Of a stretch of 64,000 nt of DNA, positions 5,721 through 22,847 are shown piece by piece (within the stretch, counting starts at the first letter, position 1; the number at the start of each line of letters is the position of its first letter). The DNA lies in NCBI GenBank assembly GCA_913009335.1, contig CAJVXN010000001.1, positions 2,844 through 66,843 on the forward strand, written 5' to 3'. The DNA is from an uncultured bacterium. Lineage in GTDB: Bacteria > Omnitrophota > Gorgyraeia > Ghiorseimicrobiales > Ghiorseimicrobiaceae. The translations under genes were made by a program, and so were the position numbers. The notes beneath the pieces were generated by a model that searched no databases, was not told the origin of the DNA, and saw only the letters and a list, made by a program, of their open reading frames with translations.

Positions 5721-6753
5721 TTCTATGCTCTCTGATTAGGCTATTTACGGTCTCAGTCAAATTTATTTCTGCCATACAAGTACGACTGCACCTGCCGCAG
5801 CCAGTACAAAAATAACGGCTAAATTTATCTATAGGATACTTAAATTTACGATAATAGCGGTGTCTTTGACGGGCGGATCGACCCGGCCTAAAATCTTCCC
5901 CTCCGGCAACCTTGGCAAAATCATCCATCTGACATGAGTTCCAAAGCCGATAACGCAAACCATCATTAAGATTAAGGCTTACTTCATCCAAAACATCAAA
6001 ACAGTAACATGTCGGACATACAGCCGTACAATTCCCACACCCAACACACCTTTTACCTACATCTTTCCATATCTCACTATCATACAACTTAGAAAATACA
6101 GCATAAAGTTCAGTAAGACGCCCGATAAACTCTTCCTTAAATATTTTCTCTTTTTTCTTGCGTACTGCATCCAATAAATACCTATCGGCGGAAATGCATT
6201 TCTTTATATAGCTACGCTGCCGTAAGATGCTCTCGGCTTTTGCGGAATTAATATGGATTATATATTTATTCCCGACATCCGTAAGCATGATGTCGTATCC
6301 CCCCTTAGGCACGTGATTCCCCATAGATACACAATTTGCATATTTATCACAAGGAGTAAGACATTCAATGCCGACAGTAGTCATGCGGTCCTTACGATTG
6401 ATATAATTGGCATCTAAAGGCTCCTGGCGAAACACTACATCCATACACTGAATACCTGCTATATCACAAGTATGCACGCCAAATAATACGAATTCTTCAA
6501 ATTTACGTATTGCTTTTGCGGTCTTAAATGGTTTTATTTTAAACTTTAATAGTCGTTCCTTTTGTGGAAAATAATATTTTTTAGGCGGAAGTATTGTAGA
6601 AATATAATTTAGATCGAGCTCCTTAACGTCTTTAATCGGCCGAAATACATGCCTGCCATCTTTTTTCTTGGGCCCATAGAGCTTACCGTGATCTTCTAAA
6701 GATTCAAGCCACCGATTAAAATCTTTCTTACTTATCTTTGCGTATCTTTCCAT
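5701..6753 (-). CDS. Hydrogenase beta subunit, Fe-S protein (sulfhydrogenase HydB-like)
   Basis: CVGCGNCTAVCPTCYC and CTGCGRCSRTCM 4Fe-4S motifs. 350 aa. It is the first structural gene of a beta-gamma-delta-alpha operon. Confidence 0.7.
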   Translation of the reverse strand: MERYAKISKKDFNRWLESLEDHGKLYGPKKKDGRHVFRPIKDVKELDLNYISTILPPKKYYFPQKERLLKFKIKPFKTAKAIRKFEEFVLFGVHTCDIAGIQCMDVVFRQEPLDANYINRKDRMTTVGIECLTPCDKYANCVSMGNHVPKGGYDIMLTDVGNKYIIHINSAKAESILRQRSYIKKCISADRYLLDAVRKKKEKIFKEEFIGRLTELYAVFSKLYDSEIWKDVGKRCVGCGNCTAVCPTCYCFDVLDEVSLNLNDGLRYRLWNSCQMDDFAKVAGGEDFRPGRSARQRHRYYRKFKYPIDKFSRYFCTGCGRCSRTCMAEINLTETVNSLIREHRNVSIGI

Positions 6754-7135: not shown

Positions 7136-7720
7136 TTACTCTTCCCCCTTAAATTTTTCATAATCCTTTTCAGTATTTATGTTTGCAAATGACAGTCCCT
7201 GCGGGTCAAAATGCGATACCTCATCGTGCTTAATTTTTTTAATTTTTACCCCTGTGAGGAAATCCGTCAATTTAAAATTATTTTTTTCGAACTGACGCTT
7301 AATAGAACTAATGCAACTTTTTGAATAAAAGGCATAAAGAGGCTCAAGCTTCCGCCTAAATTCCGGCACAACCACATCATAATCTTTTATATAATTCCGC
7401 ATGTATTCTATTAATAAAGTATTTACATGCGGCATATCTGAGGCGATTAGAAAATTATACTGACCATCTGAATTTATTAATGCAGAATATATTCCCCCTA
7501 GGGGCCCTTTATCCAACGCAATATCTGAAAATAACCGCACGCCTAATGCTTTGTAGCGTTCTAAAGAATTAGTAATAATAATAAGATCATCGAATACAGA
7601 CTTTAATTCTCTTATCTGTCTTTCAATAATAGTCTCACCATTTAAATTTAGCAATCCTTTATGGGGAACAAACCTAGTCCCTTTCCCCCCGGCAAGTATA
7701 GCTGCGGTCACCTTCATCAC
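7136..7720 (-). CDS. mobA: Molybdenum cofactor guanylyltransferase
   Basis: AAILAGGKGTRF NTP-transferase motif. 194 aa. It lies inside a Moco cluster. Confidence 0.75.
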   Translation of the reverse strand: MMKVTAAILAGGKGTRFVPHKGLLNLNGETIIERQIRELKSVFDDLIIITNSLERYKALGVRLFSDIALDKGPLGGIYSALINSDGQYNFLIASDMPHVNTLLIEYMRNYIKDYDVVVPEFRRKLEPLYAFYSKSCISSIKRQFEKNNFKLTDFLTGVKIKKIKHDEVSHFDPQGLSFANINTEKDYEKFKGEE

Positions 7721-7870
7721 ACTAAATCCTTTATAATAATTAATAATTGTTACAGGTAATATTTAAGGTGTTACAGCTCCTGACAAAATTCATCTTATCC
7801 ATAGAGATAGGCCATCCTAATACCTTTACTCAGCAGGGTAGGCCTTACCCGTTCTGTTTAGGGAAGGGCC

Positions 7871-9148
7871 TTAAGGGATGGGCCTTATAAGCTGGACCTT
7901 AATCGTATCGCCTTTTTTAATCTTTGTAACATTCTCTGGTATAACTGCTATCCCATCTGCTAAAACAAGAGATTTCAATATTCCTGATCCTTGAGGACCG
8001 GTTAGTCGAGCTAAAATTTTACCATTATTAGTCTCTAATTTTACTCTTAAAAAATAGCATAAATCTTTTTTCTTCTTAATTGTCTCCTGCGAGACCGCAT
8101 AAACTTCACAATGCCGGAAGTTTTTTACTCCGCAGGACCACATTATTGCCGGACGCACAAATTCTTCAAAACAAATAAGGCTGGATACGGGATTCCCCGG
8201 CATACCAAATATTAAAACTTTCCCTAACACAGCAAATAATAAAGGTTTTCCAGGGCGCATCTTAATACACCAAAATTTAATATCGGCGCCTAATTCTATT
8301 AAGACATCTTTAACGAAATCGTAATCACCAACCGACACCCCTCCGGAAATAAGCAGCATATCGAGGTTTAAACTTATCGCCTTTTTAATCTTAGCTCGAA
8401 TTTTTAATCTTTTATCGCGAACAATACCTAAATTAACAGGCATGCTCCCACAATCTAGAACCGCGCTATAAAGACTATAGCCGTTAGAATTACGTATTTT
8501 ACCGATAGCCAAGGGCTTTCCCGGATCAACTAATTCATCGCCTGTTGAAAGAATACCTACTACTAATTTCCTATAAACGCATACCCTGGTCAAGCCTAAG
8601 GCAGCAAACATTCCTACATCCGATGGCCCAATTTTTTTACCTTTCCTTAAAACCGTATCTTTCTTTTTTATATCCTCTCCTGCATATCTTACGTTTTCCC
8701 CTTTTTTGGGCTGATGTAAAATTTTAACATGCTGCACGTCCATCTCCATAGTCTCTTCTACTTTCACTACAGAATCAGCTCCTAGAGGAAGTGGCGCTCC
8801 CGTCATTATCCGGATTGCCTGATTAAATTTTATTTTTTTCTTAGATACGACTCCTGCGGGAAGATCATCGATTATTTCAAATATCTTAGGATTGCTTTTT
8901 GATGCGCCTTTTGCGTTTCTTGAATTAATTGCAAAACCATCCATAGCTGAATTATTAAATGGAGGAATATTGATTTTTGACTTAATATCATTTGCAAGAA
9001 TTCTACCGAAAGAAGGTAAAATAGCTACCTTCTCTGATTTTACCGGGTTCATATTGGTACGTATAATACTCATTGCCTTTTTAACATCTATCATTTTATA
9101 TTTTATTCTCCATATCGTTTTGCAGTTTCTCAATTTTAACAATCCCAA
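7871..9148 (-). CDS. moeA: Molybdopterin molybdotransferase (start is probably the internal Met near 9094)
   Basis: GADSVVKVEE, ISGGVSVGDYDFVKD and GMPGNPVS MoeA motifs. Confidence 0.8.
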   Translation of the reverse strand: MGLLKLRNCKTIWRIKYKMIDVKKAMSIIRTNMNPVKSEKVAILPSFGRILANDIKSKINIPPFNNSAMDGFAINSRNAKGASKSNPKIFEIIDDLPAGVVSKKKIKFNQAIRIMTGAPLPLGADSVVKVEETMEMDVQHVKILHQPKKGENVRYAGEDIKKKDTVLRKGKKIGPSDVGMFAALGLTRVCVYRKLVVGILSTGDELVDPGKPLAIGKIRNSNGYSLYSAVLDCGSMPVNLGIVRDKRLKIRAKIKKAISLNLDMLLISGGVSVGDYDFVKDVLIELGADIKFWCIKMRPGKPLLFAVLGKVLIFGMPGNPVSSLICFEEFVRPAIMWSCGVKNFRHCEVYAVSQETIKKKKDLCYFLRVKLETNNGKILARLTGPQGSGILKSLVLADGIAVIPENVTKIKKGDTIKVQLIRPIP

Positions 9149-10280
9149 ATATAAATAAATAAGAAAAAATCAAACCTATCGCAAAACCGATTGCTATAGA
9201 TTTTAATGCAAGAGTTGTAGCTGCGGTTAAAAACATTACAAAAAAATCTGTTTTACTTACCATGTCTCGACTCACCACTGCTAATTCAAAACCTGCAAAC
9301 AATAAAAGTATCCCTAAGACACTTACTGGATATGCTGAGAATATTTTTAAACAGGCGGCCCCGAATAATAAACCTACAAATATCTTAACAATACCAAGCA
9401 AAAATACACTTCCCCCCGTTCTAGCCCCAAATCTATATTGTGCCGCTAACCCTCCTGCGCCATGGCACATGGGCATTGCTCCGAACCAACATCCGATTAA
9501 ATTCATAAGCCCAACACTAATAGCAATCCCCCTGGGATTAACCCCTTTCTTAGGAAAAAGATCCCATGATAAAGCACAAACAGCAATTACCGAGTTTAAC
9601 AAAGTTAAAGGAATCTGTGCAATCGATGCCCTCATTACCCCTACAATAAAGTCGCTTTTCCCGGGAATTATAAATCTTGGAACAGCAAACCCGATATTCA
9701 ATTCCTTAAAGATGTGGGGAGATTTTAAAAAAACCAGTATAATACCTAAACCACATACCACCAGCGCTCCCGGAAAACGCTTACTGAATAAAAACACAAG
9801 AACCAATAACATGGATATTATACCGATAGAGATACTATCATAACCAAAAAAGGTATTAGTATTAGCTACCATCTGTATCCCTGTAATAACTAATTTTAAT
9901 CCCAAACCTAACTGCAGACCCCTTACTACGCTCTTAGGTATCATCTTGTTAAGGTGTGAAATTATATTTGTTATTCCCAGTAAAAACACTACAAAACCGG
10001 TAACTAGCCCAGCAGCGAATATTTGATTAGGAGATAATCTTTCTGCGATGGCAATAATTGCAATTGCCTTCATCGGTTGTACAGCTATAGGTATGCCAAA
10101 TAACATAGCACTCAAAACACTAAACAATCCAGAAAATATTAAAATATTTGCCGGGCTAAGACCGCAGACTGTAACCAACCCCACAAATAGAGGAATAAAT
10201 ATACCCATATCACCCAAGGAACCTGCAATCTCGGATATATTAAATTTAAATGATTTTATATTATTATGAATGAAATTCAT
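9096..10280 (-). CDS. MOT1-family (SulP-related, no STAS domain) anion permease, putative molybdate transporter
   Basis: About 11 TM helices. SLGDMGIFIPLFVGL resembles the GDLGTxIP signature of MOT1 molybdate transporters. The gene is embedded between moeA and mogA. Confidence 0.5.
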   Translation of the reverse strand: MNFIHNNIKSFKFNISEIAGSLGDMGIFIPLFVGLVTVCGLSPANILIFSGLFSVLSAMLFGIPIAVQPMKAIAIIAIAERLSPNQIFAAGLVTGFVVFLLGITNIISHLNKMIPKSVVRGLQLGLGLKLVITGIQMVANTNTFFGYDSISIGIISMLLVLVFLFSKRFPGALVVCGLGIILVFLKSPHIFKELNIGFAVPRFIIPGKSDFIVGVMRASIAQIPLTLLNSVIAVCALSWDLFPKKGVNPRGIAISVGLMNLIGCWFGAMPMCHGAGGLAAQYRFGARTGGSVFLLGIVKIFVGLLFGAACLKIFSAYPVSVLGILLLFAGFELAVVSRDMVSKTDFFVMFLTAATTLALKSIAIGFAIGLIFSYLFIFGIVKIEKLQNDMENKI

Positions 10281-10298
10281 TCTTTGACTAAAAACTAT

Positions 10299-10811
10299 TT
10301 AATGTTCTCTTCCAAGAATCATATCTAAGCCATGGGGTAATTCTTCTATAATCGCCTCCAAAGACTCCTTCGCGCCCTTAGAACTACCGGGAAGATTAAT
10401 TATAAGAGTATTCTCTCGTAATCCAGCAACACCCCTTGAAAGCATTGCCCGTTTAGTAATATGCAGACAGCTAACTCTCATTGCTTCCGATATCCCCGGA
10501 ACCTGTTTATGAACAATTTCCAAAGTTGCCTCGGGAGTAGAATCCCTTGGCCCCAACCCCGTTCCCCCGGTGGTAAATACAACATCTAACTTAAGGTTAT
10601 CAGAATAATGAATAAGTTTTTCTTTAATCATGTCAGGCTCATCAGGCACTATTTCATATATTGCAAGTTCATAATTTTTTGACTTTAAAATTTCTAGAAT
10701 AATCTTACCGCTCTTATCCTCCCTCTCCCCTTTAGAGCATTTATCACTTATAGTTAAAACTCCCGCTTTATACATTTGATTCCCCTTTTTTCTGAGTAGC
10801 AACAATCTCAT
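10299..10811 (-). CDS. mogA: Molybdenum cofactor biosynthesis protein MogA/MoaB
   Basis: TTGGTGLGPRDSTPEA motif. 170 aa. Confidence 0.8.
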   Translation of the reverse strand: MRLLLLRKKGNQMYKAGVLTISDKCSKGEREDKSGKIILEILKSKNYELAIYEIVPDEPDMIKEKLIHYSDNLKLDVVFTTGGTGLGPRDSTPEATLEIVHKQVPGISEAMRVSCLHITKRAMLSRGVAGLRENTLIINLPGSSKGAKESLEAIIEELPHGLDMILGREH

Positions 10812-11229
10812 CTCCTGGCCTTATGACTCCTGCCTTTAAAACAGTCGCAAAAATACCTTCAGTAGGCATAACACAGTCTCCCGCCTGATAATAAATAGCA
10901 CATCTTGTGTGACACTCTTTACCTATCTGGCTTATTGCTAAAACAGCATCTTTACCTATCTTTACTCTATCTCCGATATTAAGCGTTAGAAGATCAATGT
11001 CTTTTGTTGTAATATTTTCAGCAAAATCACCAGGACCTACATCAAGCCCTTTTTTTCTTATCTTTTCTATAGACTCAATAGCTAAAAAACTTACCTCTCG
11101 GCCACTCCCGGCATGAGCGTCATTTAAAACCCCAAAGTTTTCGCGCAATTCTACCATTGGCACGTTTTTCTTTTTAACGCCTTTACTTTTTGAAATTGAT
11201 GTTGCGATTATTTTTCCTTTTATCATCAT
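10768..11229 (-). CDS. MOSC-domain protein
   Basis: About 150 aa with a beta-barrel-type sequence and a conserved Cys (GKECHTRC). Moco neighbourhood. Confidence 0.5.
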   Translation of the reverse strand: MMIKGKIIATSISKSKGVKKKNVPMVELRENFGVLNDAHAGSGREVSFLAIESIEKIRKKGLDVGPGDFAENITTKDIDLLTLNIGDRVKIGKDAVLAISQIGKECHTRCAIYYQAGDCVMPTEGIFATVLKAGVIRPGDEIVATQKKGESNV

Positions 11230-11282
11230 GTTATATTTGCTTATATCTTATCTTCTATCCATATGGATAAGTCTACTACAAT

Positions 11283-11645
11283 TTATTTATTAAGACCTCC
11301 CAGAATATCATCAACCCAAGATAGTGACGCCATGGCTCTGGGCCAGCCAATAGTAGTAATAGCTAAAATCGCAGCATGGTAGATTTCTTCATCGCCTATT
11401 CCCGCTTTTTTACATTTACGGACATGAGAATGCACCCCGCCCTCAAGACCTGCCCCAATAGCAATGCCCAGCTTAACCAACCTCTGCGCGCGCTCATCAA
11501 TAGCGCCGACTCCTCTGACAGACTCTCCTAACTTTGTATAACTTTCCCAAACTTGCGGATATTTCTTAATGACTTTTTGTAAAAATTCAGGTAATTCTTT
11601 ATTCATCTCTGCCTCCTCAATGAGTACACGATTTACGGAATGCAA
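11283..11645 (-). CDS. Carboxymuconolactone decarboxylase / AhpD-like family protein
   Basis: 120 aa. A helical AhpD-like core (GGVHSHVRKCKKAGIGDEEIYHAAIL). Confidence 0.5.
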   Translation of the reverse strand: MHSVNRVLIEEAEMNKELPEFLQKVIKKYPQVWESYTKLGESVRGVGAIDERAQRLVKLGIAIGAGLEGGVHSHVRKCKKAGIGDEEIYHAAILAITTIGWPRAMASLSWVDDILGGLNK

Positions 11646-11739
11646 ATCGTAAGTACGAATTGATCCCGCCGAATATTTAAAAATTATCGTAGAAAATTTT
11701 CAAATAGATTATGAGGCGGGGTAACATTCAATTGCCTTA

Positions 11740-12666
11740 CTATCCCCCAACACTAGACATATATACCCCTGATTCCTCCCAGCTAGTATAATCAATAGCA
11801 TCCTTTGTAGACATTAAATTTTTTATCTTGGCCTTAATAAAGCTATCTTCTACACCGCTTCTTAAGAAATCTCTCAAAGATACACCCTTAGGCTGATAAA
11901 GACATAATTTTAACTCCCCTATCGCAGTTAACCTTAAACGTGAGCACATTCGGCAATTTAAGCTATGTGTCTTTATAAACCCGATTATTCCATCACTATA
12001 TCGATAATATTCTGCTGGCCCTAAATTCCGGTATCCTATCCATTCAAGGCCAAATTTACTATGACAAATATTTCTAACTTTCTCAATCGGCACAAAAAAA
12101 CTTTCCTCCCATAAAGGGGTAACCTTCATAAATTCAATAAATCTTAAAATCAAATTATTCTCCTGGGCAAAATTAACAAAATCAACTATCTCATCATCAT
12201 TAACCTGCTTTCTTACTACTACATTTAGCTTTACAGTATTAAAAAGCTTTCGAGCGCGATTAATACCATCTAGAACCTGACCAAGAAGATCTTTTCCTGT
12301 TATTGACTTAAACCGCTCTTGTCTAAGAGTATCCAGGCTTATATTCATGCTTTTAAGTCCTGCATTTTTTAAATCTTTTACATAAGAAGAAAGAAGGATT
12401 CCGTTAGTGGTAAGGCAGATTTCTTCTAAACCATCTATTTGGCTAATATTTTTCACTAAATCCACTATACCTTTTCTTACTAAAGGCTCCCCTCCGGTAA
12501 GACGTATTTTTTTTATACCTAAATCAGCGAAGATTTTTAAAAACCGCAATATCTCTTCAAAACTAAGTATCGCCTCATGCGGCTGAGTAACAATTCCTTC
12601 CTTAGGTATGCAGTATCCGCATCTTAAATTGCAACGGTCAGTAATAGAAAGTCTTAAATATCCCAT
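11740..12666 (-). CDS. moaA: GTP 3',8-cyclase (radical SAM)
   Basis: LRLSITDRCNLRCGYCIP. C-terminal Cys motif for the second cluster. 308 aa. Confidence 0.85.
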   Translation of the reverse strand: MGYLRLSITDRCNLRCGYCIPKEGIVTQPHEAILSFEEILRFLKIFADLGIKKIRLTGGEPLVRKGIVDLVKNISQIDGLEEICLTTNGILLSSYVKDLKNAGLKSMNISLDTLRQERFKSITGKDLLGQVLDGINRARKLFNTVKLNVVVRKQVNDDEIVDFVNFAQENNLILRFIEFMKVTPLWEESFFVPIEKVRNICHSKFGLEWIGYRNLGPAEYYRYSDGIIGFIKTHSLNCRMCSRLRLTAIGELKLCLYQPKGVSLRDFLRSGVEDSFIKAKIKNLMSTKDAIDYTSWEESGVYMSSVGG

Positions 12667-13368
12667 TTATACTCGTTTTTTATAAGTAAATTTAGAAAAA
12701 ATTACTCCCATCTCATACAATAAAATCAGGGGCAGGGCCATTAATACTTGAGTAACAACATCCGGAGGAGTCATAAGTGCTGCAGCGATAAAAACCAACA
12801 CGATCGCTTCTCTCCTTCTTGCTGCTAAAGTAGCTGGGGTAACTATCCCAACTTTAGTTAAAAAAATAAGGGCTATAGGTAACTGAAACACGATAGCAAA
12901 CGCAAAAGATAGGCTTGCTACAAAAGAGATATAATTACTTATGGAAATCATGGGAGTCAAAAAATCAGTCTCAAAACCCAAAAGAAACTTTACCCCCAAA
13001 GGTGTAATAACAGAATATCCGAATATCAACCCTGATGCAAAAAGAAGAAAAGAAACTGGACCAAAAAAGTAAATAAGTCGTCGCTCATCAATCATCAACC
13101 CCGAAGAGATAAATTTCCAAACCTGATAAAGTATAAAAGGCGACGAAATAATTAATCCTACAAACAATGCGATCTTTATATTGGCAATGAATGCTTCTTG
13201 AGGAGCAATAAATACAAGCTTACCAGCGGGTTTTATCAAAGAAGGCAAAATTTTATCACTAAAGCTATAGATAGCTATCGAACAAATCACCAAAAAAATT
13301 AAGGACCTAATAATACAACTCCTTAATTCATCTAAATGCTCGACTAAAGATAGTTTTTCATCTTTCAT
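12667..13368 (-). CDS. tatC: Twin-arginine translocase subunit TatC
   Basis: Six-TM protein. HLDELRSCIIRSL N-terminus typical of TatC. Confidence 0.8.
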   Translation of the reverse strand: MKDEKLSLVEHLDELRSCIIRSLIFLVICSIAIYSFSDKILPSLIKPAGKLVFIAPQEAFIANIKIALFVGLIISSPFILYQVWKFISSGLMIDERRLIYFFGPVSFLLFASGLIFGYSVITPLGVKFLLGFETDFLTPMISISNYISFVASLSFAFAIVFQLPIALIFLTKVGIVTPATLAARRREAIVLVFIAAALMTPPDVVTQVLMALPLILLYEMGVIFSKFTYKKRV

Positions 13369-13403
13369 CTATAATAAAATTAAATACTTGCAACAAAATA
13401 TAA

Positions 13404-13586
13404 TTATTTCTTTTTTTCTTCGTTGGTTGCGTCTTTAATATCATCTTTAATTTCTTTAGCCCCCTTCTTAAACTCCTTAATCGAGCGACCCAAAGCACGG
13501 GCAATCTCAGGAAGACGCGTTGCTCCAAATAATACCAGGACTATCAACAAAATTACAATAAGCTCTCCCATCCCAAACCGAAACAT
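13404..13586 (-). CDS. tatA: Twin-arginine translocase subunit TatA/E
   Basis: MFRFGMGELIVILLIVLVLFGATRLPEIARALG: a TM helix, an FG hinge and an amphipathic helix. Confidence 0.8.
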   Translation of the reverse strand: MFRFGMGELIVILLIVLVLFGATRLPEIARALGRSIKEFKKGAKEIKDDIKDATNEEKKK

Positions 13587-13696
13587 AATACCCTCCTATG
13601 CTAAAATTACAGTGTTTTTATAATAATTAAACCATTACATAATAAAATTCAAAATAAATAGTTTGTATCAGGAATAAAAAAGAGAGGCAAAAACTA

Positions 13697-14314
13697 TTAA
13701 TAACCAGAATTACACCTACTTGTAAGATTTCTCTGGTCTTCTTCAATAAATGATCTTGTAAGTCGGGCTAATTTTCTATAAAAGGCCTGATGAGCACCTG
13801 CTTCTACGCTAGCAGTAAACTTATTCACCCATCTACCAAGGTGCATACCCAAAAAAGATGCCTGCTTCTGACAATAACCAAAAGCAGTATTAGAATCCTT
13901 ATTTTTCATCGATTCTGCCTCTCTAAAAATAAGCAAATACATGAATTCTAATTCTACGGCAATATGGTCAGGTGCCTCCCTTACAGTAATATCTAAGCCT
14001 TCTTTCCTGTACCACTTTTTTACATCCATAGTTGAGTCACCCATAATTCTTCTTGCGCCCTCAAGATAAACCGACCCATAAGGGGGTGCGAGTAACTTGT
14101 ATGGCCCGAGGAAAAGTTTTGAGTAATCAATTTTTAACGATACGATGTCATCTACCTCTGGAATATTCTTGATAACTTCCAGAGTCAAGCCATTTTGTGA
14201 TTCTTTAAATGCTTTTAATGCTCCGATCAACTTCTCATCCGGGGCGTAATAGCAATCTGACAATAACTTATATAAATCAGACCTCACATTGTCACAAACT
14301 AAATCATTCTTCAT
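13697..14314 (-). CDS. TorD/DmsD/NarJ-family redox-enzyme maturation chaperone
   Basis: KLFLGPYKLLAPPYGSVY and EAPDHIAVELEFMYLL motifs. It lies directly downstream of the Mo-enzyme catalytic subunit. Confidence 0.7.
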   Translation of the reverse strand: MKNDLVCDNVRSDLYKLLSDCYYAPDEKLIGALKAFKESQNGLTLEVIKNIPEVDDIVSLKIDYSKLFLGPYKLLAPPYGSVYLEGARRIMGDSTMDVKKWYRKEGLDITVREAPDHIAVELEFMYLLIFREAESMKNKDSNTAFGYCQKQASFLGMHLGRWVNKFTASVEAGAHQAFYRKLARLTRSFIEEDQRNLTSRCNSGY

Positions 14315-16896
14315 TAAAGTTTTACTATTTTAACCCTAGTCAAGGCATAAAATGCCGAAGACCCGCTCAAACGGTCATAATCGGCAGGAATAATAGTATT
14401 GTTATTCCCTCCTCTTGCAACCTTGCCAAACTTTTTAGCGGCTACTTTCCCATAAGCCCAATGTCCTTGCCCGTAACATTTTGCAACAGTTCCGGGACGC
14501 ACGCCTTCCCATAACTTTGCCGTACATTCAATCTCGCCAATTTTAGAAATCAGTTTAATTTTATCTCCGTTTTTTATTCCTACCTTACTAGCATCAACGG
14601 AATTTATCTTAGCTACATCATCCCAAGCCTCATCTCCCGGATCAATATCTTTCAACTCCTGATACCAAGTACAATTTGCGGACCTACCTTCTCTATTTAG
14701 GCGGGATTTGTAATCTACAAGCTGAAAAGGAAACTCACTCTTCCTCCCCCAGACAAACGGCTCTTCATAATGAGGCATAAATGCTTTATCTCCTCTAGCT
14801 TGATATTTACAAAGACTCATAATTTTATCAATACTTGTTTTATATTTCTCTGCGTGTTGAGTTAAAGCTGCCTTCAATGTTTCACTATAAAACTCGAACT
14901 TTTTTGTTTTAGTTTTCATCTTCCCCCATCTTGCCCTGTAATGATAAGGATCTGAATTCCAAACACCCCTAGCGGTAAAGTCTTTCCAGCCGCTTAATTT
15001 ATCACCGCCTTTATATTCCTTTGGATCCCAAAGGTTCCTGGTAACATACTTAAGAGCATAAAGAGCAAACTCTTTTTCGTTGGCTGGCGATTTACCAGTT
15101 TCAGGATCTTTGTATTCCATGTAATGCATGAGAAGATTATCAAATCCCCTATCGCTAAGTTTTTCAGCAAGTAACCAAGGAATCTCGGATTCATCTGTTC
15201 GAATATCCCATACCAAATCAGTAACAGGCTTAAGCAGAGTAACATGGCGATACGCGTTTCCGTGTGATTTAACATAACCCCATTTCTCAAACATATGATG
15301 CGTAGAAGGTAAAACTATGTCCGCAAACCAGGTAAATTCAGCGGCATGTGTGGTAATATGTACGGTAAAAGGGATTTTGCTTAAGGCTTTTTCCCAACGT
15401 TCAGTTCCAGGACAGGAAAAAGGAAAATTATTCATATAGGCAATGACTACCTTTATTTCGTTAGGATCCTTATCCAATATCGCATCTGCTACTCTATTAG
15501 TAACAACCCCACTACCAGGCTTACCTTTTTTCAAAGCAGGAAACTCTTTTGTACCTCTATGATCCATCTTCTTATGCTTTTTCCCTTTTTTGGCAATCTC
15601 GTCCATAAATGAATCGGGCTTGGGGAATTTCCCTGTATACTCCTTATTAGCCTTAAGAGTCCCCCCTAAATTATCTACTGATCCTACTAGCCCATTGAGC
15701 GCATGTGTCGCCATGGCCCCATAACATCCTCTAACCTGCATAGAAGGACCACCGCCAACCCAACAAATAGCATGCGGGGCAGCTTTGGCAAAGCCTATAG
15801 CTACTCTCTTTATCTGTTCGACACTTATCCCTGTTATTTTTGCTGCCCATTCCGGCGTCTTATCTTTTAATTCAACATTCCACCATTTAATCAGTCCATA
15901 CGTATATTTCTCCTGAAAAGTAAGTTTTTTATTAACTTCTCCCTTTAGAGTAAATTCTTCGAGGATTCTTTTTTTCGGTATAAATTCTTTCACAGGAGAA
16001 TCCTTATCAAAATCTCCAACGAAATCTTTATACCATAAGCCATTAGTAAGGATAACATGAGCGAAGGCCGATGCCAAAGCTCCATCTTCTCCGGGCTTAA
16101 TCGGCAACCACTCATCAGCCTTTGTAGCTGTAGCTGAAAATCGAGGATCTACAACAGCAACTTCTGCCCTATCAAGCATATCTCCCCATTCACTTAGATA
16201 ATAAGAAACCTGCCGATTAGCAGAAACAGGATCAGCGCCCCAAAGAAGCACATATCTAGCATTCTTAATATCATATTGCCGATAACCCCATAATCCTTCG
16301 GTATAATAAGATCCGAATTTTTCCGCCTCAGCACAAATTGCACTATGAGAAATATTATTGGGAGAGCCGATGATTTTAGTCATGCGGTCATAGATAATAT
16401 CGCGCATATAAGAGTATCTTCCCCTCATAAGCATATACTTGTGTGTTTCATTATTATTCCTGAGTTCCATTATTTTATCTGCTACAGTATTAAGAGCCTC
16501 ATCCCAAGATATAGGAACAAATCCAGGATCTTCATTTCTACCTTTCTTAGGATTAGTCCTTTTCATCGGTAATTTGATCCTATCCGGGTCATAAACTTGC
16601 TGAAGAGCCATATGGGATCTTGGACAGCTTGCTTTTCCGTTTACCTTTGAGTTTGCGTTTCCTCTAACTTTAACAGCTCTACCATCAACTACATAAACCT
16701 CCACAGAACACCAGGAAGTACATCCCTGACAAGTAGTTGCCTTCCACTCACCGGAAGCTGCAAATAAAGGCTTATCCGTTGCAGCAAAAGCCCGCAAAAC
16801 AGGTTTAAGATTATAAGCAACTGTTGCTACTACTCCGGTAGCTGCTGCAGTTTTCATAAAAGCTCGACGACTCAATTTTTTCTTCGCAATATCCAT
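14314..16896 (-). CDS. Tat-exported molybdopterin oxidoreductase catalytic (A) subunit, Psr/Phs/Ttr/Arr-like clade; substrate unknown
   Basis: Tat signal LSRRAFMKTAAATGVVA. N-terminal C-x2-C-x3-C-x~30-C 4Fe-4S motif (CQGCTSWCS...CPRSH). 860 aa. Confidence 0.75.
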   Translation of the reverse strand: MDIAKKKLSRRAFMKTAAATGVVATVAYNLKPVLRAFAATDKPLFAASGEWKATTCQGCTSWCSVEVYVVDGRAVKVRGNANSKVNGKASCPRSHMALQQVYDPDRIKLPMKRTNPKKGRNEDPGFVPISWDEALNTVADKIMELRNNNETHKYMLMRGRYSYMRDIIYDRMTKIIGSPNNISHSAICAEAEKFGSYYTEGLWGYRQYDIKNARYVLLWGADPVSANRQVSYYLSEWGDMLDRAEVAVVDPRFSATATKADEWLPIKPGEDGALASAFAHVILTNGLWYKDFVGDFDKDSPVKEFIPKKRILEEFTLKGEVNKKLTFQEKYTYGLIKWWNVELKDKTPEWAAKITGISVEQIKRVAIGFAKAAPHAICWVGGGPSMQVRGCYGAMATHALNGLVGSVDNLGGTLKANKEYTGKFPKPDSFMDEIAKKGKKHKKMDHRGTKEFPALKKGKPGSGVVTNRVADAILDKDPNEIKVVIAYMNNFPFSCPGTERWEKALSKIPFTVHITTHAAEFTWFADIVLPSTHHMFEKWGYVKSHGNAYRHVTLLKPVTDLVWDIRTDESEIPWLLAEKLSDRGFDNLLMHYMEYKDPETGKSPANEKEFALYALKYVTRNLWDPKEYKGGDKLSGWKDFTARGVWNSDPYHYRARWGKMKTKTKKFEFYSETLKAALTQHAEKYKTSIDKIMSLCKYQARGDKAFMPHYEEPFVWGRKSEFPFQLVDYKSRLNREGRSANCTWYQELKDIDPGDEAWDDVAKINSVDASKVGIKNGDKIKLISKIGEIECTAKLWEGVRPGTVAKCYGQGHWAYGKVAAKKFGKVARGGNNNTIIPADYDRLSGSSAFYALTRVKIVKL

Positions 16897-16983
16897 ATCT
16901 CTTCTCCCCTCCCCTTAAAAACTCTTTCGATATATTACATCTTAAGTGATACCAGAAAACTTAGAAAAAATACAATACTTTCT

Positions 16984-17877
16984 CTATAGACTCCCTACAG
17001 ATTTTTTATATACAGCAGGATTATAATTTCTTACGTAAAATACCTTGGGTTCTGTCCCCAGGTGTTCCTTAAGCCGCATTGGGCGATATTTTCCAATAAC
17101 CTGATTTACTTTGCTATTAGGATCATTTAAGTCTCCGAATATCCTTGCTTCGGCTGGACATCTCATTACACAATAGGGTAACTTTCCTTTCTTTACTCTA
17201 TGGTCGCAAAAAGTGCATTTCTCTACAATACCTTTACGCCTTAAACCAGAACCCTTCTTATTTTGTTCTCTATCCGGATTATAATAAGGAACCACCCTCC
17301 CCTTCACATCCTTACTAACATCCTCTGGCGAATCAGTACAACCTTTTATCAAAGCTTTTCTATCTCTCCAAAACCGATGAGTTTCTTCTTCGTTAAAATA
17401 AATTACCCCCTCATACGGACAAGCCTCCATACATGCTAAGCATCCTATGCAAAGCTCTGGCTCTTGGGCAACTATATCACCATCTGCTTTATGCCTAGCT
17501 GATGTTGGACACACTTCCACGCAGGGCGGCTTTTCACAATGATTGCATAATGTCGGTATATAATCATATCTAACATTGGGGAATTTACCTGCTGTAGTAC
17601 TTTTCTTGTAAGACCAAGTCGCGCCCTCCTGTAAATTGTTTTCATTTTTGCAAGAAATTATACAACCCCCGCATCCGGTGCATCTTTGAAGATCCAATAC
17701 CATTGCCAAGCGTTTCCCAGATAAGGGTTTTTTATCGGCAAAAACTTCTTTTGCGCTCATTGCTCCCGCTACCGATACAGCTACGGCCCCGCTCATCTTT
17801 AAAAAATCTCTTCGCGAAACTTTCTTTTTTTGCAGGATATTGCCTGCAGCATTCTTTTTATTTTTTATCTTAAGCAT
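16984..17877 (-). CDS. Tat-exported 4x[4Fe-4S] ferredoxin-type electron-transfer (B) subunit
   Basis: Tat motif VSRRDFLKMSGAVAVS. Four CxxCxxCxxxCP-type clusters. 297 aa. Confidence 0.75.
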   Translation of the reverse strand: MLKIKNKKNAAGNILQKKKVSRRDFLKMSGAVAVSVAGAMSAKEVFADKKPLSGKRLAMVLDLQRCTGCGGCIISCKNENNLQEGATWSYKKSTTAGKFPNVRYDYIPTLCNHCEKPPCVEVCPTSARHKADGDIVAQEPELCIGCLACMEACPYEGVIYFNEEETHRFWRDRKALIKGCTDSPEDVSKDVKGRVVPYYNPDREQNKKGSGLRRKGIVEKCTFCDHRVKKGKLPYCVMRCPAEARIFGDLNDPNSKVNQVIGKYRPMRLKEHLGTEPKVFYVRNYNPAVYKKSVGSL

Positions 17878-17969
17878 ACCTCCCCCTATCGTTATAAACC
17901 AATAAGCAGCCTATTGAAAACCAGGCTACTTATTGGCCATTAATTGATATCTTGCGATTATATTAAACA

Positions 17970-19244
17970 CTAAAACTTAAATATCAAATCTGTCTGTATT
18001 ATCTGATCGTCTGATTTATTTCCCGTAATAACTTCGGTATTGTAGTAATCAACGGAAAAAGTAAGATTATCAGCAAGACCGTAGTCAAAAATAAGTTCCC
18101 AACCCTTGGCATTGGTTTTGGCGTCGTTGAAATCGCCATCGGGAAAAACATCTACCATGGCATCAGCCGCCAAACGGGAATATTGGCCAAGCAGTCTCCA
18201 TTGGCCTTTCTTTTTGACTTTTGATTTACCAAGCCAAGCTCCAACTCTCCAGGCCTCATTGCTCCTGCTTACAGCAGTATTTTCAGCAAATTCTGCAAGC
18301 AGACCAGCGGGAATATCAATGATACCAAAGATGTTCGACGATGAAAATTTCAACGCAGGACTAATAATTCTATAATCGTATCGTAGATTTGTTCCTACGG
18401 TTGTATTTGTGCTGGGTAAAGTACTAAGAACAGTCCCCTCTACGGATTTAAAATTATAGAATGCCAGACCCGTTTTTAACTTAGCATCCCAATCTTTGAT
18501 TTTCGTCTCTGTCCCCGCCTGCGCGATAAAAAGATGGGGATCTCTTGCAGTAGAAGATAAGTTTTCCAGAGGAAAGTATCCTCCAGCAAGAAATACTTTA
18601 GTAGGATTGGCCTCAAATGAATTTAGCTTATGGGTTAATTTAACAACAGCTCCTTCAAACCTTATATCAGAATCCCAAAGCATATCGGTATGGAAAAACG
18701 GACTCTTGAATTTACCGCCGATAAGATATAGCCAATCCCTAGGTTCATATTTCACATATGCATAATCAAGATCGAAATTCTTAGTCGAGAATGAATCATC
18801 CAGCGTCTGGTTGGTAGATGTTATACTTGAACCTCCTGTAGCCAGGCCAAAACCCAACTTAACCTGATCATTGACTTTTGTCGTAGCGCCCACGCGAAAA
18901 CGTAGTCTCTGGCGGTTATTGTCCTTCCCCGGAGCATTAGATTCAGCCTCATTTCTTAATCTCAGGTCGCCTTTAAATTTAAAATCCTTAATCCAGCTCG
19001 GCACTTCTTTTTGCTTCTTCTCAAGATTTGTTACTCTTGCTTCTAAACCTTTTGGGGTAGGTTCTGCCTTTTTTTCAATCTCAGCCCTCAACCCATCTAC
19101 TTCTTTCTGGCTAATAAGTCCTTTTTTAATTAATAGTTTCAGCATAATTTCGCTTGTTTGATCAGCAGAGCAAACAGAAGCTAAGCTAAAAATAATCCCA
19201 AAAGATAACAATAATACCAAACATGCTTTTATTGTTTTCACCAA
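17970..19244 (-). CDS. Outer-membrane beta-barrel protein (putative porin) with an N-terminal coiled-coil
   Basis: Signal peptide ending ASVCSA. Alternating amphipathic beta-strands. C-terminal ...TDLIFKF (terminal Phe). Confidence 0.5.
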   Translation of the reverse strand: MVKTIKACLVLLLSFGIIFSLASVCSADQTSEIMLKLLIKKGLISQKEVDGLRAEIEKKAEPTPKGLEARVTNLEKKQKEVPSWIKDFKFKGDLRLRNEAESNAPGKDNNRQRLRFRVGATTKVNDQVKLGFGLATGGSSITSTNQTLDDSFSTKNFDLDYAYVKYEPRDWLYLIGGKFKSPFFHTDMLWDSDIRFEGAVVKLTHKLNSFEANPTKVFLAGGYFPLENLSSTARDPHLFIAQAGTETKIKDWDAKLKTGLAFYNFKSVEGTVLSTLPSTNTTVGTNLRYDYRIISPALKFSSSNIFGIIDIPAGLLAEFAENTAVSRSNEAWRVGAWLGKSKVKKKGQWRLLGQYSRLAADAMVDVFPDGDFNDAKTNAKGWELIFDYGLADNLTFSVDYYNTEVITGNKSDDQIIQTDLIFKF

Positions 19245-19289
19245 TCACCTCCCTTTTTTACGTTTCTAATTTTTCCGTTATGGATATAT

Positions 19290-19325
19290 AAAAAAAAGAC
19301 ACTTATGCATTGATAAGTGTCTTAA
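19290..19325 (-). terminator. Rho-independent terminator after the octaheme cytochrome gene
   Basis: An 11-bp perfect stem, aagacacttat/ataagtgtctt, with a 6-nt loop. On the minus strand it is followed by an 8-nt U-run. Confidence 0.7.
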
Positions 19326-19434
19326 TGCGCTTTATCCTAGAAAGATATTTTTCTGTCATATCAATTATTTGCTTCGTGAAAGATATCACTAAATTTCTAT
19401 GCGTTTATTTTACCACTCTACTCTATGCTGTCAA

Positions 19435-20853
19435 CTATTTTTTATCGTTTTCTGATTCCAATGCCTTTATTCTTCTGCGCATTTCTATATCATTTATCAT
19501 CGTACCGAGTTTATTCATGATTGCATCAACCGCGCCATTCCAATGTGTCCAATCCGGACCCATCATGCTTGCCCCCATCCGCCAACGCCTGCCATCGTGG
19601 TGCCAAACTAAATAATGCATTATCTCCGGAGTCTCATCAAGAGGATTACTCTTATCTATCAATCCCTCTTCGTATGCCTCAGCAAGCAAATTATCCGTAT
19701 ATTCCCAAACCATATTATAATCACTTACAACTTTATCAAATTCAATAAAATAGTTATCCGCCCATTGCCGAGAATGGCATTGATAACATATTTTTTTCAT
19801 TTGGGCCCTTCCCTTTTCTGCTTTCTTTCTATCCGGAATCCTTTCTGTTACAATATCAACCTCATCCGGCCCCTTCCATTGAGGCACTGATTTCTTAGGC
19901 TGAAGCTCCCAATATAATCTCTCGCTAACATTATGCGTTGAGGCAACTACCCCGCCGAATCCACTCATATGACAGACAGCACATGTGGGTGCCGCCGCAT
20001 CTTCAGGTCTCCATTCATCAACAGGAGCAGTCCAATTCCATTCCTCTCCAGATGCTGCGTAGATATTACCATGCTTAGATTCCTCATATATCTCATGCTG
20101 AGGGTGATCAGGTCCAAGATGACATTGTCCGCATACCTCAGGCTTGCGAGCCTCGGCAACACTAAATTTATGCCTGGGGTGACAAGCCGTGCACGAACCC
20201 ATGCTTCCATCGGGATTTATCCTGCCGACACCGGCATTAGGCCATCCCTTTAATTTACCGTCACCTTCCGCGACAATAAAACTCCCGTGGCATTGAATAC
20301 ATCCCAAATTTACATTGTTATGATGATACTGAGGATCATCCAAAAAACCGATTTTTTCCAGAATACCGCTATCCGGAAAAAGAGGCGATAGAGTAGTTTT
20401 AGCCATTCTTTCAGGATCTAATTTTTTCGCTGTTTCCTGCTTTAAAGGGTCAAGCTGCATTTCTTTTGCTTTTACATAATATGGTTTTAAAGGACCCATG
20501 AACGCAGCCCAGACATGTTTACTTTTGGCGTATTCCTCAACCTCCTTAGAATGACATTGCGCGCAAGTTAACGGAGAAGGCACAGCCGTTATCTTAAAAC
20601 CGTTATGCTCATACCCTGAAGGATCATTTTTTTTAGCCTCATGACAGGTAAAACATCCTACATCCATAGCGCTATGCTTACTCTCTTGCCATTGTTTGAT
20701 AATGCCGGGTGTAACATCAGCATGACACTTAACGCATGAATCTTTAACCTCCTCTGCAAAAACAATATTGAATGGTAAAAAGACAATAAACATAAATAAT
20801 AAACTAGAGATTTTTATTTTATAGACAAGCTCCAAAACCCCTCTCAATAACAT
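19435..20853 (-). CDS. Octaheme c-type cytochrome (HAO/OTR-like multiheme family)
   Basis: Eight CxxCH motifs (CVKCH, CFTCH, CAQCH, CIQCH, CTACH, CGQCH, CAVCH, CYQCH). N-terminal signal peptide. 472 aa. Confidence 0.7.
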   Translation of the reverse strand: MLLRGVLELVYKIKISSLLFMFIVFLPFNIVFAEEVKDSCVKCHADVTPGIIKQWQESKHSAMDVGCFTCHEAKKNDPSGYEHNGFKITAVPSPLTCAQCHSKEVEEYAKSKHVWAAFMGPLKPYYVKAKEMQLDPLKQETAKKLDPERMAKTTLSPLFPDSGILEKIGFLDDPQYHHNNVNLGCIQCHGSFIVAEGDGKLKGWPNAGVGRINPDGSMGSCTACHPRHKFSVAEARKPEVCGQCHLGPDHPQHEIYEESKHGNIYAASGEEWNWTAPVDEWRPEDAAAPTCAVCHMSGFGGVVASTHNVSERLYWELQPKKSVPQWKGPDEVDIVTERIPDRKKAEKGRAQMKKICYQCHSRQWADNYFIEFDKVVSDYNMVWEYTDNLLAEAYEEGLIDKSNPLDETPEIMHYLVWHHDGRRWRMGASMMGPDWTHWNGAVDAIMNKLGTMINDIEMRRRIKALESENDKK

Positions 20854-21835
20854 AATCGGCTAAATCGCCTAACGCATCACGATAACTGGAGCGAGAAAGC
20901 TTACCTAAGCTGTGTTTTGATTTATTAATAGAGGACAAGGCTTCTTCTTTTGTTTTTATAAATATTGCACTATCCTTTATCTTGTCTTTTATCTTATCCA
21001 TTATTTCTTTACTAATATTACGTTTGGCTAAATGCTCTTTAAGTTCTTTCCTGTCTTTAGCAGCCAGCGAATTAAATAAATCATAAAGCGGAAGAGTTAT
21101 TTCTCCTTGCGCGATATCCTGCCCTCCAGACTTACCTAATATAGACTTAGCAGCTATAATATCTAAATAGTCATCGACAACCTGAAAAGCAATACCAAAA
21201 TTTACTCCGTAATTATTTAAGGCAGTGTATTTCTCCTTATCGTGATTACCAGCAATAAGCGCGGCACCTTTACAACAGGCCGATATCAATGCTGCTGTTT
21301 TTTTATTAACTATTACCATATACTCTTTTTGCGGAAGGTCAAAATTATCTCGTTCGAAAATCTGAAAAAGCTGGCCCTCGCACATTGCCCTCGCGGCCAC
21401 TGCGACACAGCCTAAGACATCCGGATGCCCGCATTTCGCGACCAGTTCAAACGCCTTTGTGTAGATATAATCCCCAAATGCGATAGAGACATCTTCGCCC
21501 CACTTTGCGTGTATTGTTTGTTTATTGCGGCGCGTTAAAGAGTTATCAATAATATCATCATGTATAAGGCTCGCGGTATGTATAAGTTCGATTGCCGCTG
21601 CCATGCGAATCAATAAACTTAAATCTTTTGATTTTAATTTTCCGTTTGCTGCTGCGTGCGCTGAAAGCATTACCAGAGCCGGCCTAAGACGCTTGCCTCC
21701 CCAGCCCAATAAATAATCATTAATCCGGCATAATGAATTATATTTTGTGTTAAGATGACTCCTTAAGAGATCTTCTACTCTACAAAGATCTTCTGTAATC
21801 GGCTGGTAGATATTTTTCAGCTTTTTCATCTTCAT
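20819..21835 (-). CDS. Long-chain polyprenyl diphosphate synthase (IspB-like)
   Basis: LIHDDIIDNS (first DDxxD) and DDYLD (second) motifs. 338 aa. Confidence 0.75.
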   Translation of the reverse strand: MKMKKLKNIYQPITEDLCRVEDLLRSHLNTKYNSLCRINDYLLGWGGKRLRPALVMLSAHAAANGKLKSKDLSLLIRMAAAIELIHTASLIHDDIIDNSLTRRNKQTIHAKWGEDVSIAFGDYIYTKAFELVAKCGHPDVLGCVAVAARAMCEGQLFQIFERDNFDLPQKEYMVIVNKKTAALISACCKGAALIAGNHDKEKYTALNNYGVNFGIAFQVVDDYLDIIAAKSILGKSGGQDIAQGEITLPLYDLFNSLAAKDRKELKEHLAKRNISKEIMDKIKDKIKDSAIFIKTKEEALSSINKSKHSLGKLSRSSYRDALGDLADYVIERGFGACL

Positions 21836-21921
21836 GCTATTCAGAGGAATGTACCTTCCTTTCCCTTGAAGGAAGGGTGCTATTCAGAGGAATGTACCTT
21901 CCTCTCCATTAAAGGAAGGGT
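21836..21921. repeat. Two tandem 43-bp direct repeats, each forming a hairpin, filling the MenA-IspB intergenic gap
   Basis: gctattcagaggaatgtaccttcctttcccttgaaggaagggt and gctattcagaggaatgtaccttcctctccattaaaggaagggt. Each has an accttcc/ggaaggt stem. Confidence 0.8.
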
Positions 21922-22847
21922 GCTATCCGATCCAGAATAAAACCAAGGCTTAAAACAATACCTATAATAAGATGTAATTTTATTGTTGCGGCGTTTGAAA
22001 AGAGTAATCGTTGAGTATTATTAAAATTTTTTGATACATTTTTTGCAGCTTTATAGGCTAAAGGAATAGTAAAAAGTGAAAACAGGCAATATGCGGGAAT
22101 AATTTTATAAATTACAGTGAGAAGAATAAAGGAATAAGTTAAAATCAATAAAATTTGATACAGATAAACTGCTCTTGCCTTTCCCAGTAAAACAACTACA
22201 GTATTCTTGCCTACCGCCTTATCTGCCTGATAATCCGGAAACTCATTAATATAAAGGATTAGGAGCACTAGAATACCGATAGGGACCGCGCTTACAACCG
22301 GCACCATACCTAATGTTTTTGCCTGGACATAATAACTACCCAAAACAACAAGCGGGCCAAAACATAAACCCACAACTATCTCTCCCATTCCACGATAGCC
22401 TATCTTCAAAGGAGTCGCAGTATAGAAAATTGCCATGGCGACACCGGCTAAACCCAAGAATAGAACCACATTGGTTTTAAGCTGAAAATTAAGATACAAT
22501 CCAATAATACTTCCGAGGAAAAAAGATAAAAACGCAAACAAAGAAACATTACGGGGAGACATTTGGCCGTCCTGGATAACACGGCTTCCTCCGCTAAAAG
22601 GAGTAAAATTCAAATTCGCTTCATCATTGCCGCTTTTATGATCAAAATAGTCATTAATAAGATTTGTACCTATATTAATAGCAGCAATACCTAAAAGAAC
22701 AAGGCAGAAAAAATACCAGTTAAATAATCCGGTTTTATACCAGGCAATAACCGAACCAAGTAAAACTGGCACAAGCGTCGCAGTTAAAAAAGGAACCCTT
22801 GCTGCTTTTAGATAAATTGATATCCGACTAAAATTAAGCTTGCTCAA
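21909..22847 (-). CDS. UbiA-family prenyltransferase, MenA-like (1,4-dihydroxy-2-naphthoate polyprenyltransferase)
   Basis: NDYFDHKSGNDEA Asp-rich motif. About 9 TM helices. Adjacent to the polyprenyl synthase. Confidence 0.65.
   Translation of the reverse strand: MSKLNFSRISIYLKAARVPFLTATLVPVLLGSVIAWYKTGLFNWYFFCLVLLGIAAINIGTNLINDYFDHKSGNDEANLNFTPFSGGSRVIQDGQMSPRNVSLFAFLSFFLGSIIGLYLNFQLKTNVVLFLGLAGVAMAIFYTATPLKIGYRGMGEIVVGLCFGPLVVLGSYYVQAKTLGMVPVVSAVPIGILVLLILYINEFPDYQADKAVGKNTVVVLLGKARAVYLYQILLILTYSFILLTVIYKIIPAYCLFSLFTIPLAYKAAKNVSKNFNNTQRLLFSNAATIKLHLIIGIVLSLGFILDRIAPFL

Follow-up and report, generated by a model that had tools for sequence, protein, structure and literature searches.

The 64-kb window analyzed here, a stretch of 64,000 nucleotides from an uncultured marine Omnitrophota bacterium of the Ghiorseimicrobiaceae (assembly GCA_913009335.1, contig CAJVXN010000001.1, positions 2,844 to 66,843), carries at positions 7136-20853 a molybdoenzyme gene cluster that we interpret as encoding an Arr-type dissimilatory arsenate reductase. 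In this reading, to which we assign a probability of roughly 0.8, the gene for the membrane subunit, arrC, was lost secondarily, the electron donor would be encoded elsewhere, and the octaheme cytochrome at the head of the cluster would be independent of the enzyme. The genes listed in the initial annotation all lie where it placed them, and family and motif matches bear out its description of a twin-arginine translocation (Tat)-exported periplasmic A/B molybdoenzyme accompanied by a dedicated chaperone and by Tat, molybdenum cofactor (Moco) and porin genes; a CMD/AhpD-family gene (11283-11645) also belongs to the cluster. Its remark that the genes cluster on one strand is accurate, as the minus strand holds every one of them, but co-orientation carries little weight because all but one of the approximately 60 long open reading frames in the window are on that strand and the GC skew is negative along its whole length. 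Window coordinates below refer to the minus strand unless stated otherwise.

The catalytic subunit (14314-16896) is a protein of 860 amino acids with an SRRAFMK Tat motif, a predicted bis-molybdopterin guanine dinucleotide (bis-MGD) molybdenum site and the FS0 [4Fe-4S] cluster. The NCBIfam ArrA model matches it over its full length at 1252 bits, with PhsA as the runner-up at 249 bits, and its best match in the PDB, from end to end and at 1086 bits, is ArrA from Shewanella sp. ANA-3 (6cz7), the next PDB family being PsrA (2vpw, 167 bits). Identity to 6cz7, a proven arsenate reductase, is 57.5% over 800 residues (residues 47-859). Inspection of the active site, a check that the initial annotation had proposed, found an ArrA-type arrangement in which 7/7 of the residues considered are kept: the molybdenum ligand Cys193 and R165, Y166, H189, S190, K198 and Y210 in ANA-3 numbering correspond to C188, R160, Y161, H184, S185, K193 and Y205 in the window protein and are invariant across 21 members of the clade. 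The ANA-3 list of arsenate-pocket residues is attributed to Glasser et al. 2018, and under one constant offset of 40 its numbers all land on the expected kinds of residue. The N-terminal cluster motif, read from the sequence as C56-x2-C59-x3-C63-x27-C91, is accompanied by a match to Pfam Molybdop_Fe4S4. The protein also has the motif RGRY (R158-G159-R160-Y161), likewise invariant in the 21 clade members; RGRY, or (R/K)GRY, marks ArrA and XGRGWG marks ArxA (PMC6549141). Assignment as a polysulfide, thiosulfate, tetrathionate, selenate or dimethyl sulfoxide reductase was ruled out by score, and assignment as Arx by the RGRY motif. On these scores, pocket residues and motif the subunit is classified as ArrA and arsenate is its predicted substrate, which overturns the earlier view that the substrate could not be assigned from sequence and places the enzyme in a well-characterized clade with a known set of partners, an outcome that the initial annotation had named among those that would refute it.

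Relatives of the window ArrA were sought by scanning one genome per species, which returned 291 genomes that carry one; the 80 best matches among these 291 are 67-79% identical to the window protein. A metagenome scan added 80 loci, and 160 related arr loci (designated by L numbers) were compared in all. Contigs of a marine metagenome and of the Candidatus Omnitrophica metagenome-assembled genome GCA_011051015.1 encode a protein identical to the window ArrA. A group dominated by Desulfobacterota, comprising 39 genome loci and 46 metagenome loci, has the order arrA-arrB-arrC-arrD, an ArrB of 241 amino acids that lacks a Tat signal and an ArrC that is an NrfD protein of about 370 amino acids. 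Genes for a sigma-54 regulator and for a periplasmic binding protein often stand ahead of these loci. In the PDB, the binding protein matches best to the arsenate sensor ArrX (187 bits), and through this ArrX-like protein in its Desulfobacterota members the ArrA clade is predicted to be arsenate-linked. A second group has the order arrC-arrB-arrA-arrD, with an ArrC of 282 amino acids of the NrfD family (5e-41) and an ArrB of about 290 amino acids that bears its own Tat signal, and it draws its members from Omnitrophota, Planctomycetota, Calditrichaceae, Brocadiaceae and Alkalispirochaeta. Bacteroidota loci follow the order B-C-A-D, and in three loci from Anaerolineae and Saprospiraceae (L025:13277-13744, L043 and L073) a diheme c-type cytochrome of 145-155 amino acids lies between arrB and arrD and replaces arrC. 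Among the relatives that encode both arrB and arrC are L018, from the anaerobic methanotrophic archaeon Candidatus Methanoperedenaceae, and L016, from the anammox family Brocadiaceae, with ArrA proteins at 69-71% identity; their presence in an archaeon and in an anammox family suggests wide horizontal spread of the ArrA clade. In related genomes, too, arrB-arrA-arrD is found together with porin, Tat, Moco, MOT1 and MenA/IspB genes, and this clustering is therefore not a matter of chance. In L003 (6368-6766) and L004, a secreted, cysteine-rich protein of 132 amino acids that matches no Pfam family is encoded between IspB and the porin or arrC gene, in the exact place that the octaheme gene occupies in the window. 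L017 has an open reading frame of 132 amino acids at the same position, which is not detectably related to the L003/L004 protein, as BLAST found no homolog of the latter in the window or in any other locus.

The electron-transfer subunit ArrB (16984-17877) has an SRRDFLK Tat motif and 16 cysteines arranged in four [4Fe-4S] cluster motifs, matches Fer4_11 and TAT_signal in Pfam, and has ArrB as its best NCBIfam match at 286 bits, which is under that model's curated cut-off of 450 bits. In a survey of ArrB signal peptides that drew on L001 to L082, ArrB had its own Tat signal wherever arrB preceded arrA (15/15 loci) and in the B-C-A loci (2/2), and lacked one in 52 of the 53 loci with arrB downstream. 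The Tat-bearing and Tat-less proteins constitute two distinct export designs inside a single ArrA clade. ArrD (13697-14314), a TorD/NarJ-family chaperone for Tat proofreading and cofactor insertion (PF02613, 8e-28; NCBIfam TorD and DmsD), starts 1 nt inside the stop of arrA, and arrD directly follows arrA or arrC in 68 of 82 loci.

The initial annotation reported that no NrfD/PsrC-type subunit is encoded with the enzyme, and this observation held. A six-frame search of the 64-kb window by tblastn and with two ArrC profile hidden Markov models, based on 51 ArrC sequences taken from related loci, gave nothing better than E=0.004, and neither NrfD nor a cytochrome is encoded in the 10 kb past the right end of the window. 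A database search with the ArrC of a relative returned no match traceable to this genome, the candidate that was checked (P0247) coming from a different sample. The absence is indeed unusual, as the closest relatives carry arrC: in near relatives the porin gene is followed by arrC, encoding the 282-residue NrfD-type protein, and then by arrB, whereas in the window 92 nt, with no arrC, lie between the end of the porin gene and the beginning of arrB. The same junction is found in independent assemblies of this population, and among near relatives with visible upstream sequence this genome alone has porin-arrB-arrA without arrC. In a neighbor-joining tree, rooted on Shewanella ArrA as the sole outgroup and built without ArxA, PsrA, TtrA and SrdA references, the window ArrA nests within the arrC-arrB-arrA-arrD clade beside other Omnitrophota. 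Because it nests inside an arrC-bearing clade, we interpret the absence of arrC as a secondary loss in this lineage. Two further ArrC-less B-A-D loci, neither of them with a cytochrome, occur in metagenomes: L102, with the order MOT1, porin-like barrel, arrB, arrA, arrD, MoeA, and L107, with the order regulator, arrB, arrA, arrD, Porin_5, small outer-membrane protein. Moreover, arr clusters often lack arrC, CymA substituting for it in Shewanella (PMC2500031, PMC2762525, PMC10060404), where this tetraheme cytochrome supplies electrons to ArrAB (PMC2762525). An anchor-less ArrAB is thus not unprecedented and is already known from Shewanella.

These precedents bear on the proposal that the arr operon is in decay or has ceased to serve respiration, uncoupled from the quinone pool after the loss of arrC and conserving little or no energy. 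Loss of a gene that all near relatives with visible upstream sequence have kept would fit such decay, as would the presence of an IS110 transposase in the window and the lack of an arsenic regulator in the operon, where L003 and L004 carry genes for a response regulator and a kinase after arrD. Nevertheless, we regard this as decidedly unlikely: none of arrA, arrB, arrD and the accessory genes is truncated or disrupted, the catalytic residues are invariant, the porin-arrB junction is identical in independent assemblies, ArrC-less loci recur in other lineages, and the ArrC-less enzymes of Shewanella are functional (PMC2762525).

Several points weigh against the interpretation of the locus as a respiratory arsenate reductase with a donor encoded elsewhere. 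The ArrA score of 1252 bits is below the NCBIfam NF041714 equivalog cut-off of 1600, a naming threshold that does not represent a biochemical feature. In vitro, Arr enzymes can also run in reverse, and antimonate can serve as a substrate, with Sb(V) reduction reported for ArrAB (PMC11521347); for this reason we infer, rather than observe, the direction of catalysis and the physiological substrate. The literature searched yielded no experimental study of any member of the sub-clade with arrB upstream, and the window encodes neither an arsenic sensor (ArrX/S/R) nor an ars resistance gene. Finally, neither the window nor the 10 kb past its right end yielded a quinol-oxidizing partner, which leaves the respiratory chain incomplete as seen. 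The first two of these points could be taken to favor another substrate or the reverse direction, with the enzyme acting as an antimonate reductase or as an Arx-like arsenite oxidase that feeds periplasmic acceptors such as the octaheme cytochrome; in Arx, a close variant of Arr, the subunits are the same (PMC10060404), and arrC would become dispensable if the enzyme worked with a periplasmic couple independent of quinone. The arsenate pocket is fully kept, however, the motif is of the ArrA type and not the ArxA type, identity to a proven arsenate reductase is substantial, as given above, and relatives within the clade are tied to ArrX and to ArrC quinol oxidases, all of which make this alternative highly improbable.

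The gene that opens the cluster (19435-20853) encodes a soluble periplasmic octaheme cytochrome c of the HAO family (eight CxxCH motifs; PF13447, 3e-30), with an open reading frame of 472 amino acids that the public call gives as 466. Its PDB matches are IhOCC of Ignicoccus (4qo5, 193 bits), Kustc0458 of Kuenenia (6h5l), HAO of Nitrosomonas (1fgj) and 4n4j. The motif CHLGPDHPQ aligns with CHSGVDH of HAO and CHMGPDHP of Kustc0458, which hold the distal Asp-His pair of the catalytic heme, and this Asp-His motif is kept in 96 of 120 homologs of the octaheme. More than 100 homologs at 55-78% identity, spread over many phyla, have in common the eight hemes, the Asp-His motif and a cleavable Sec signal. 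Proteins of the HAO family have seven electron-transfer hemes and one catalytic heme, and members that lack the tyrosine cross-link reduce nitrite and hydroxylamine (PMC8042395); the C-terminal region of the window protein aligned to IhOCC alone and not to the Tyr-cross-linked HAOs. The window protein, which belongs to a subfamily of 460-residue proteins, is probably of the nitrite/hydroxylamine type, and we consider it most likely to be an independent HAO-family nitrogen-oxide reductase, separate from the Arr system.

The initial annotation had suggested that electrons might reach the enzyme through this cytochrome, and a stronger form of that idea is that the octaheme replaced ArrC as the electron-input module. 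Its position between IspB and the porin gene, where relatives carry the 132-residue gene, lends this some appeal, as do the absence of arrC from this genome alone among near relatives and the precedents for a cytochrome-fed ArrAB in the A-B-diheme-D loci and in CymA of Shewanella. The start of the octaheme gene also overlaps the stop of IspB, and it is therefore probably co-transcribed with the menaquinone genes. With a cleavable Sec signal and no membrane anchor, however, the protein could not oxidize menaquinol by itself; as a soluble protein it might pass electrons on to ArrB, but the quinol oxidation carried out by ArrC would be beyond it. It keeps the catalytic Asp-His motif of an enzyme family tightly conserved at 60-78% identity, and the genes of its close homologs are solitary in 5/6 sampled genomic contexts and follow napA-napG-napH-napD in the sixth. 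Homologs are absent from all 160 related arr loci (0/160), the adjacency to arr being unique to this genome, and the ArrC-less loci L102 and L107 manage without any cytochrome. Between the octaheme stop and the porin start lies an 11-bp perfect hairpin followed by U8 that resembles a terminator (19296-19323), and the folding of this leader gave z = -2.6. Directly after the octaheme stop is a sigma-70-like promoter match (19407-19434; TTGACA-16-TG-TAAAAT, 11/12), the best in the region and a match to the consensus only. No Rfam family, including Moco and other riboswitches, was detected in the leader or elsewhere in the window at the gathering threshold or at E<=1. An electron-donor role for the octaheme is unsupported given its HAO-family identity, its lack of linkage to arr in the 160 loci and the terminator-like hairpin that separates it from the enzyme genes, and we judge replacement of ArrC by this protein unlikely; its placement next to arr is probably a coincidence. 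A more elaborate version, in which a soluble HAO-type octaheme took over from ArrC to create a quinone-independent periplasmic link between arsenic and nitrogen oxides, within a portable island that also holds an NADH module of hybrid Nqr/Rnf-NuoEF type and menaquinone prenylation, porin, Tat and Moco genes, strikes us as very unlikely. If it were true, the octaheme would be the electron-entry wire for ArrAB, or ArrAB running in reverse would feed an octaheme nitrite/hydroxylamine reductase.

Between the octaheme and the enzyme genes lies a Porin_5 outer-membrane beta-barrel (17970-19244; PF16930, E=1e-58) with a signal peptide and the C-terminus ...IFKF, which shows weak similarity to the OmpM porin barrel (8bys/8bym). 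Nine related loci, representing two or more phyla, have a Porin_5 gene adjoining arr (L003, L004, L005, L010, L015, L099, L106, L107 and L160). The initial annotation supposed that a substrate that is bulky or extracellular might enter through the porin. This is unnecessary for an oxyanion as small as arsenate, and the simplest interpretation is that the porin is a channel for arsenate and arsenite; most likely it would serve as a putative route for arsenate in and arsenite out. The 92-nt spacer between the porin gene and arrB contains a 14-bp hairpin (17899-17936), which could either terminate transcription in part or mark a processing site, fixing the ratio of porin to enzyme. A further protein that resembles an outer-membrane barrel, of about 225 amino acids and matching no Pfam family, is encoded in arrC-arrB-arrA-arrD loci, often next to Porin_5 (L005:4588-5265; L008, L013, L015, L098, L100, L106 and L107), and is absent from the window.

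Taken as an arsenate reductase whose electron donor is encoded elsewhere, the system may operate as follows. Arsenate would cross the outer membrane through the Porin_5 barrel, with arsenite leaving by the same path, and ArrA would reduce arsenate to arsenite in the periplasm at a Mo-bisMGD site held by Cys188, in a pocket formed by R160, Y161, H184, S185, K193 and Y205. Electrons would travel through the four [4Fe-4S] clusters of ArrB to the FS0 cluster of ArrA. Since arrC has been lost, ArrAB would have to be a soluble periplasmic heterodimer like that of Shewanella, and would draw its electrons from a donor whose gene lies elsewhere, for instance a quinol dehydrogenase of the CymA/NrfH or another type, perhaps by way of periplasmic cytochromes. 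ArrD together with TatA and TatC would mature and export both twin-arginine subunits, part of the cofactor pathway would be supplied by MoaA, MogA, MoeA and MobA together with the MOT1 molybdate permease, and the octaheme would be transcribed with MenA and IspB and terminated ahead of the porin-arr operon.

Downstream of arrD, TatA (13404-13586; PF02416, 8e-20) and TatC (12667-13368; PF00902, 2e-65) are followed by MoaA, which performs the first step of Moco synthesis (11740-12666; Radical_SAM and Mob_synth_C), by the CMD/AhpD-family protein (PF02627, 3e-12) and by a MOSC-domain protein (10768-11229; PF03473, 2e-10). Beyond these lie a MogA/MoaB-type MoCF_biosynth protein (10299-10811; PF00994, 6e-32), an MFS_MOT1 molybdate transporter with 11 hydrophobic segments (9096-10280; PF16983, 4e-58), the molybdopterin molybdotransferase MoeA (7871-9148; MoeA_N, MoCF_biosynth and MoeA_C, with the NCBIfam MoeA model at 375 bits) and the guanylyltransferase MobA (7136-7720; NTP_transf_3 and NCBIfam MobA), which makes the MGD form that ArrA needs. 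The Moco set is not complete, contrary to the initial annotation: MoaC, MoaD, MoaE and MoeB were not found in the cluster or among the other window open reading frames of at least 100 amino acids, a lower limit above the size range of MoaD. CMD/AhpD homologs also come after arrD in a number of arr loci from Desulfobacterota (L022, L031, L043, L047 and L064), which hints at an unrecognized accessory role for this gene in arr loci.

Upstream of the octaheme, family matches identify MenA, for menaquinone prenylation (21909-22847), and an IspB-like polyprenyl diphosphate synthase (20819-21835). The MenA-IspB pair immediately precedes arr in L003, L004 and L017 and adjoins it in L005 and L010. The window also encodes a six-gene Rnf/Nqr-like membrane complex (26689-34555), in which subunits B to E match best to NqrB-E and subunit A to RnfC, and in which the sixth subunit (29177-30130) joins an NqrF-like N-terminus, with a transmembrane helix and a 2Fe-2S site, to a NuoE-like domain; separate NuoE-like and NuoF-like genes follow it. 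A homologous complex lies directly beside arrCBAD in L006, L010, L011, L075 and L106, flanked in L010 by IspB and MenA. This arrangement suggests that the Nqr/Rnf-like, MenA/IspB, Tat, Moco and arr genes form a transferable module running from NADH through menaquinone to Arr; in the window this chain is broken at the quinol-oxidation step. Elsewhere in the window, the sole long gene on the plus strand is the IS110-family transposase (58258-59478, +), near which another assembly of the same population stops. A fusion of a HypC/HupF N-terminal domain to a radical-SAM/BATS (BioB/HydE-like) domain is encoded at 851-2149, downstream of a four-subunit group-3-type [NiFe] hydrogenase (2793-6753), HycI and HypA.

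Our findings assign a potential for arsenate respiration to Omnitrophota, a phylum that was not listed among arrA carriers in the literature searched and in which no cultured arsenate respirers are known. They also draw attention to a large environmental ArrA clade, represented in the 291 species genomes, whose members go unnamed in public records, where they are labeled only as "molybdopterin-dependent oxidoreductase" because their scores fall under the NF041714 cut-off. Within it we define a sub-architecture in which arrB lies upstream of arrA, ArrB has its own Tat signal, porin genes are present and MenA/IspB and an Nqr/Rnf-like complex are often found, and this sub-architecture looks like a transferable arsenate-respiration island.

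Among known systems, ArrAB of Shewanella sp. ANA-3 shares with the window enzyme the molybdenum-ligand cysteine, the arsenate-binding residues, the RGRY motif and the FS0 motif, as well as the form of a soluble periplasmic A/B heterodimer with no ArrC in the operon. It differs in its A-B gene order, against B-A-D in the window, and in its ArrB, which is of the downstream type that lacks the Tat signal seen here; the window in turn co-encodes the chaperone, TatAC, the Moco and MOT1 genes and the porin, and has no CymA/NapC-type cytochrome. The arrC-containing operons, comprising arrCAB/arrABCD of Desulfobacterota and others and the C-B-A-D loci of Omnitrophota and Planctomycetota relatives such as L003, L005 and L010, have the closely similar ArrA proteins noted above and have ArrB, ArrD, Porin_5, MenA/IspB, Tat and Moco neighbors in common with the window. 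Unlike them, the window lacks the 282-residue ArrC between the porin and arrB, has the octaheme in place of the secreted cysteine-rich protein, and carries no response regulator, kinase or ArrX. The Arx system of Alkalilimnicola ehrlichii (arxB2ABCD) belongs to the same Arr/Arx branch of the dimethyl sulfoxide reductase family and likewise has a ferredoxin-like gene (arxB2) upstream of A and a TorD-like D subunit; ArxA, however, has XGRGWG where the window protein has RGRY, and in Arx the A subunit is followed by another B and by a C subunit, whereas the window has one B, which is ArrB-like. PsrABC and PhsABC share the A/B(/C) layout of complex iron-sulfur molybdoenzymes, and the ArrC of the relatives is of the NrfD/PsrC family, but in sequence both are distant, as the PhsA and 2vpw scores given above indicate, and Psr always has a C subunit (PMC2500031). 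The octaheme resembles the reductive HAO-family proteins (epsilon-Hao, Kustc0458 in 6h5l and IhOCC in 4qo5) in its eight CxxCH motifs, its heme-core alignment and its periplasmic signal, and, like HAO and Kustc0458, it has an Asp-His pair following heme 6, though identity to the solved members is about 30-50% and local only, and no diheme partner like Kustc0457 is present. In summary, the system is a variant of the known Arr type, in which both the kind of enzyme and the anchor-less form of ArrAB have been described before.

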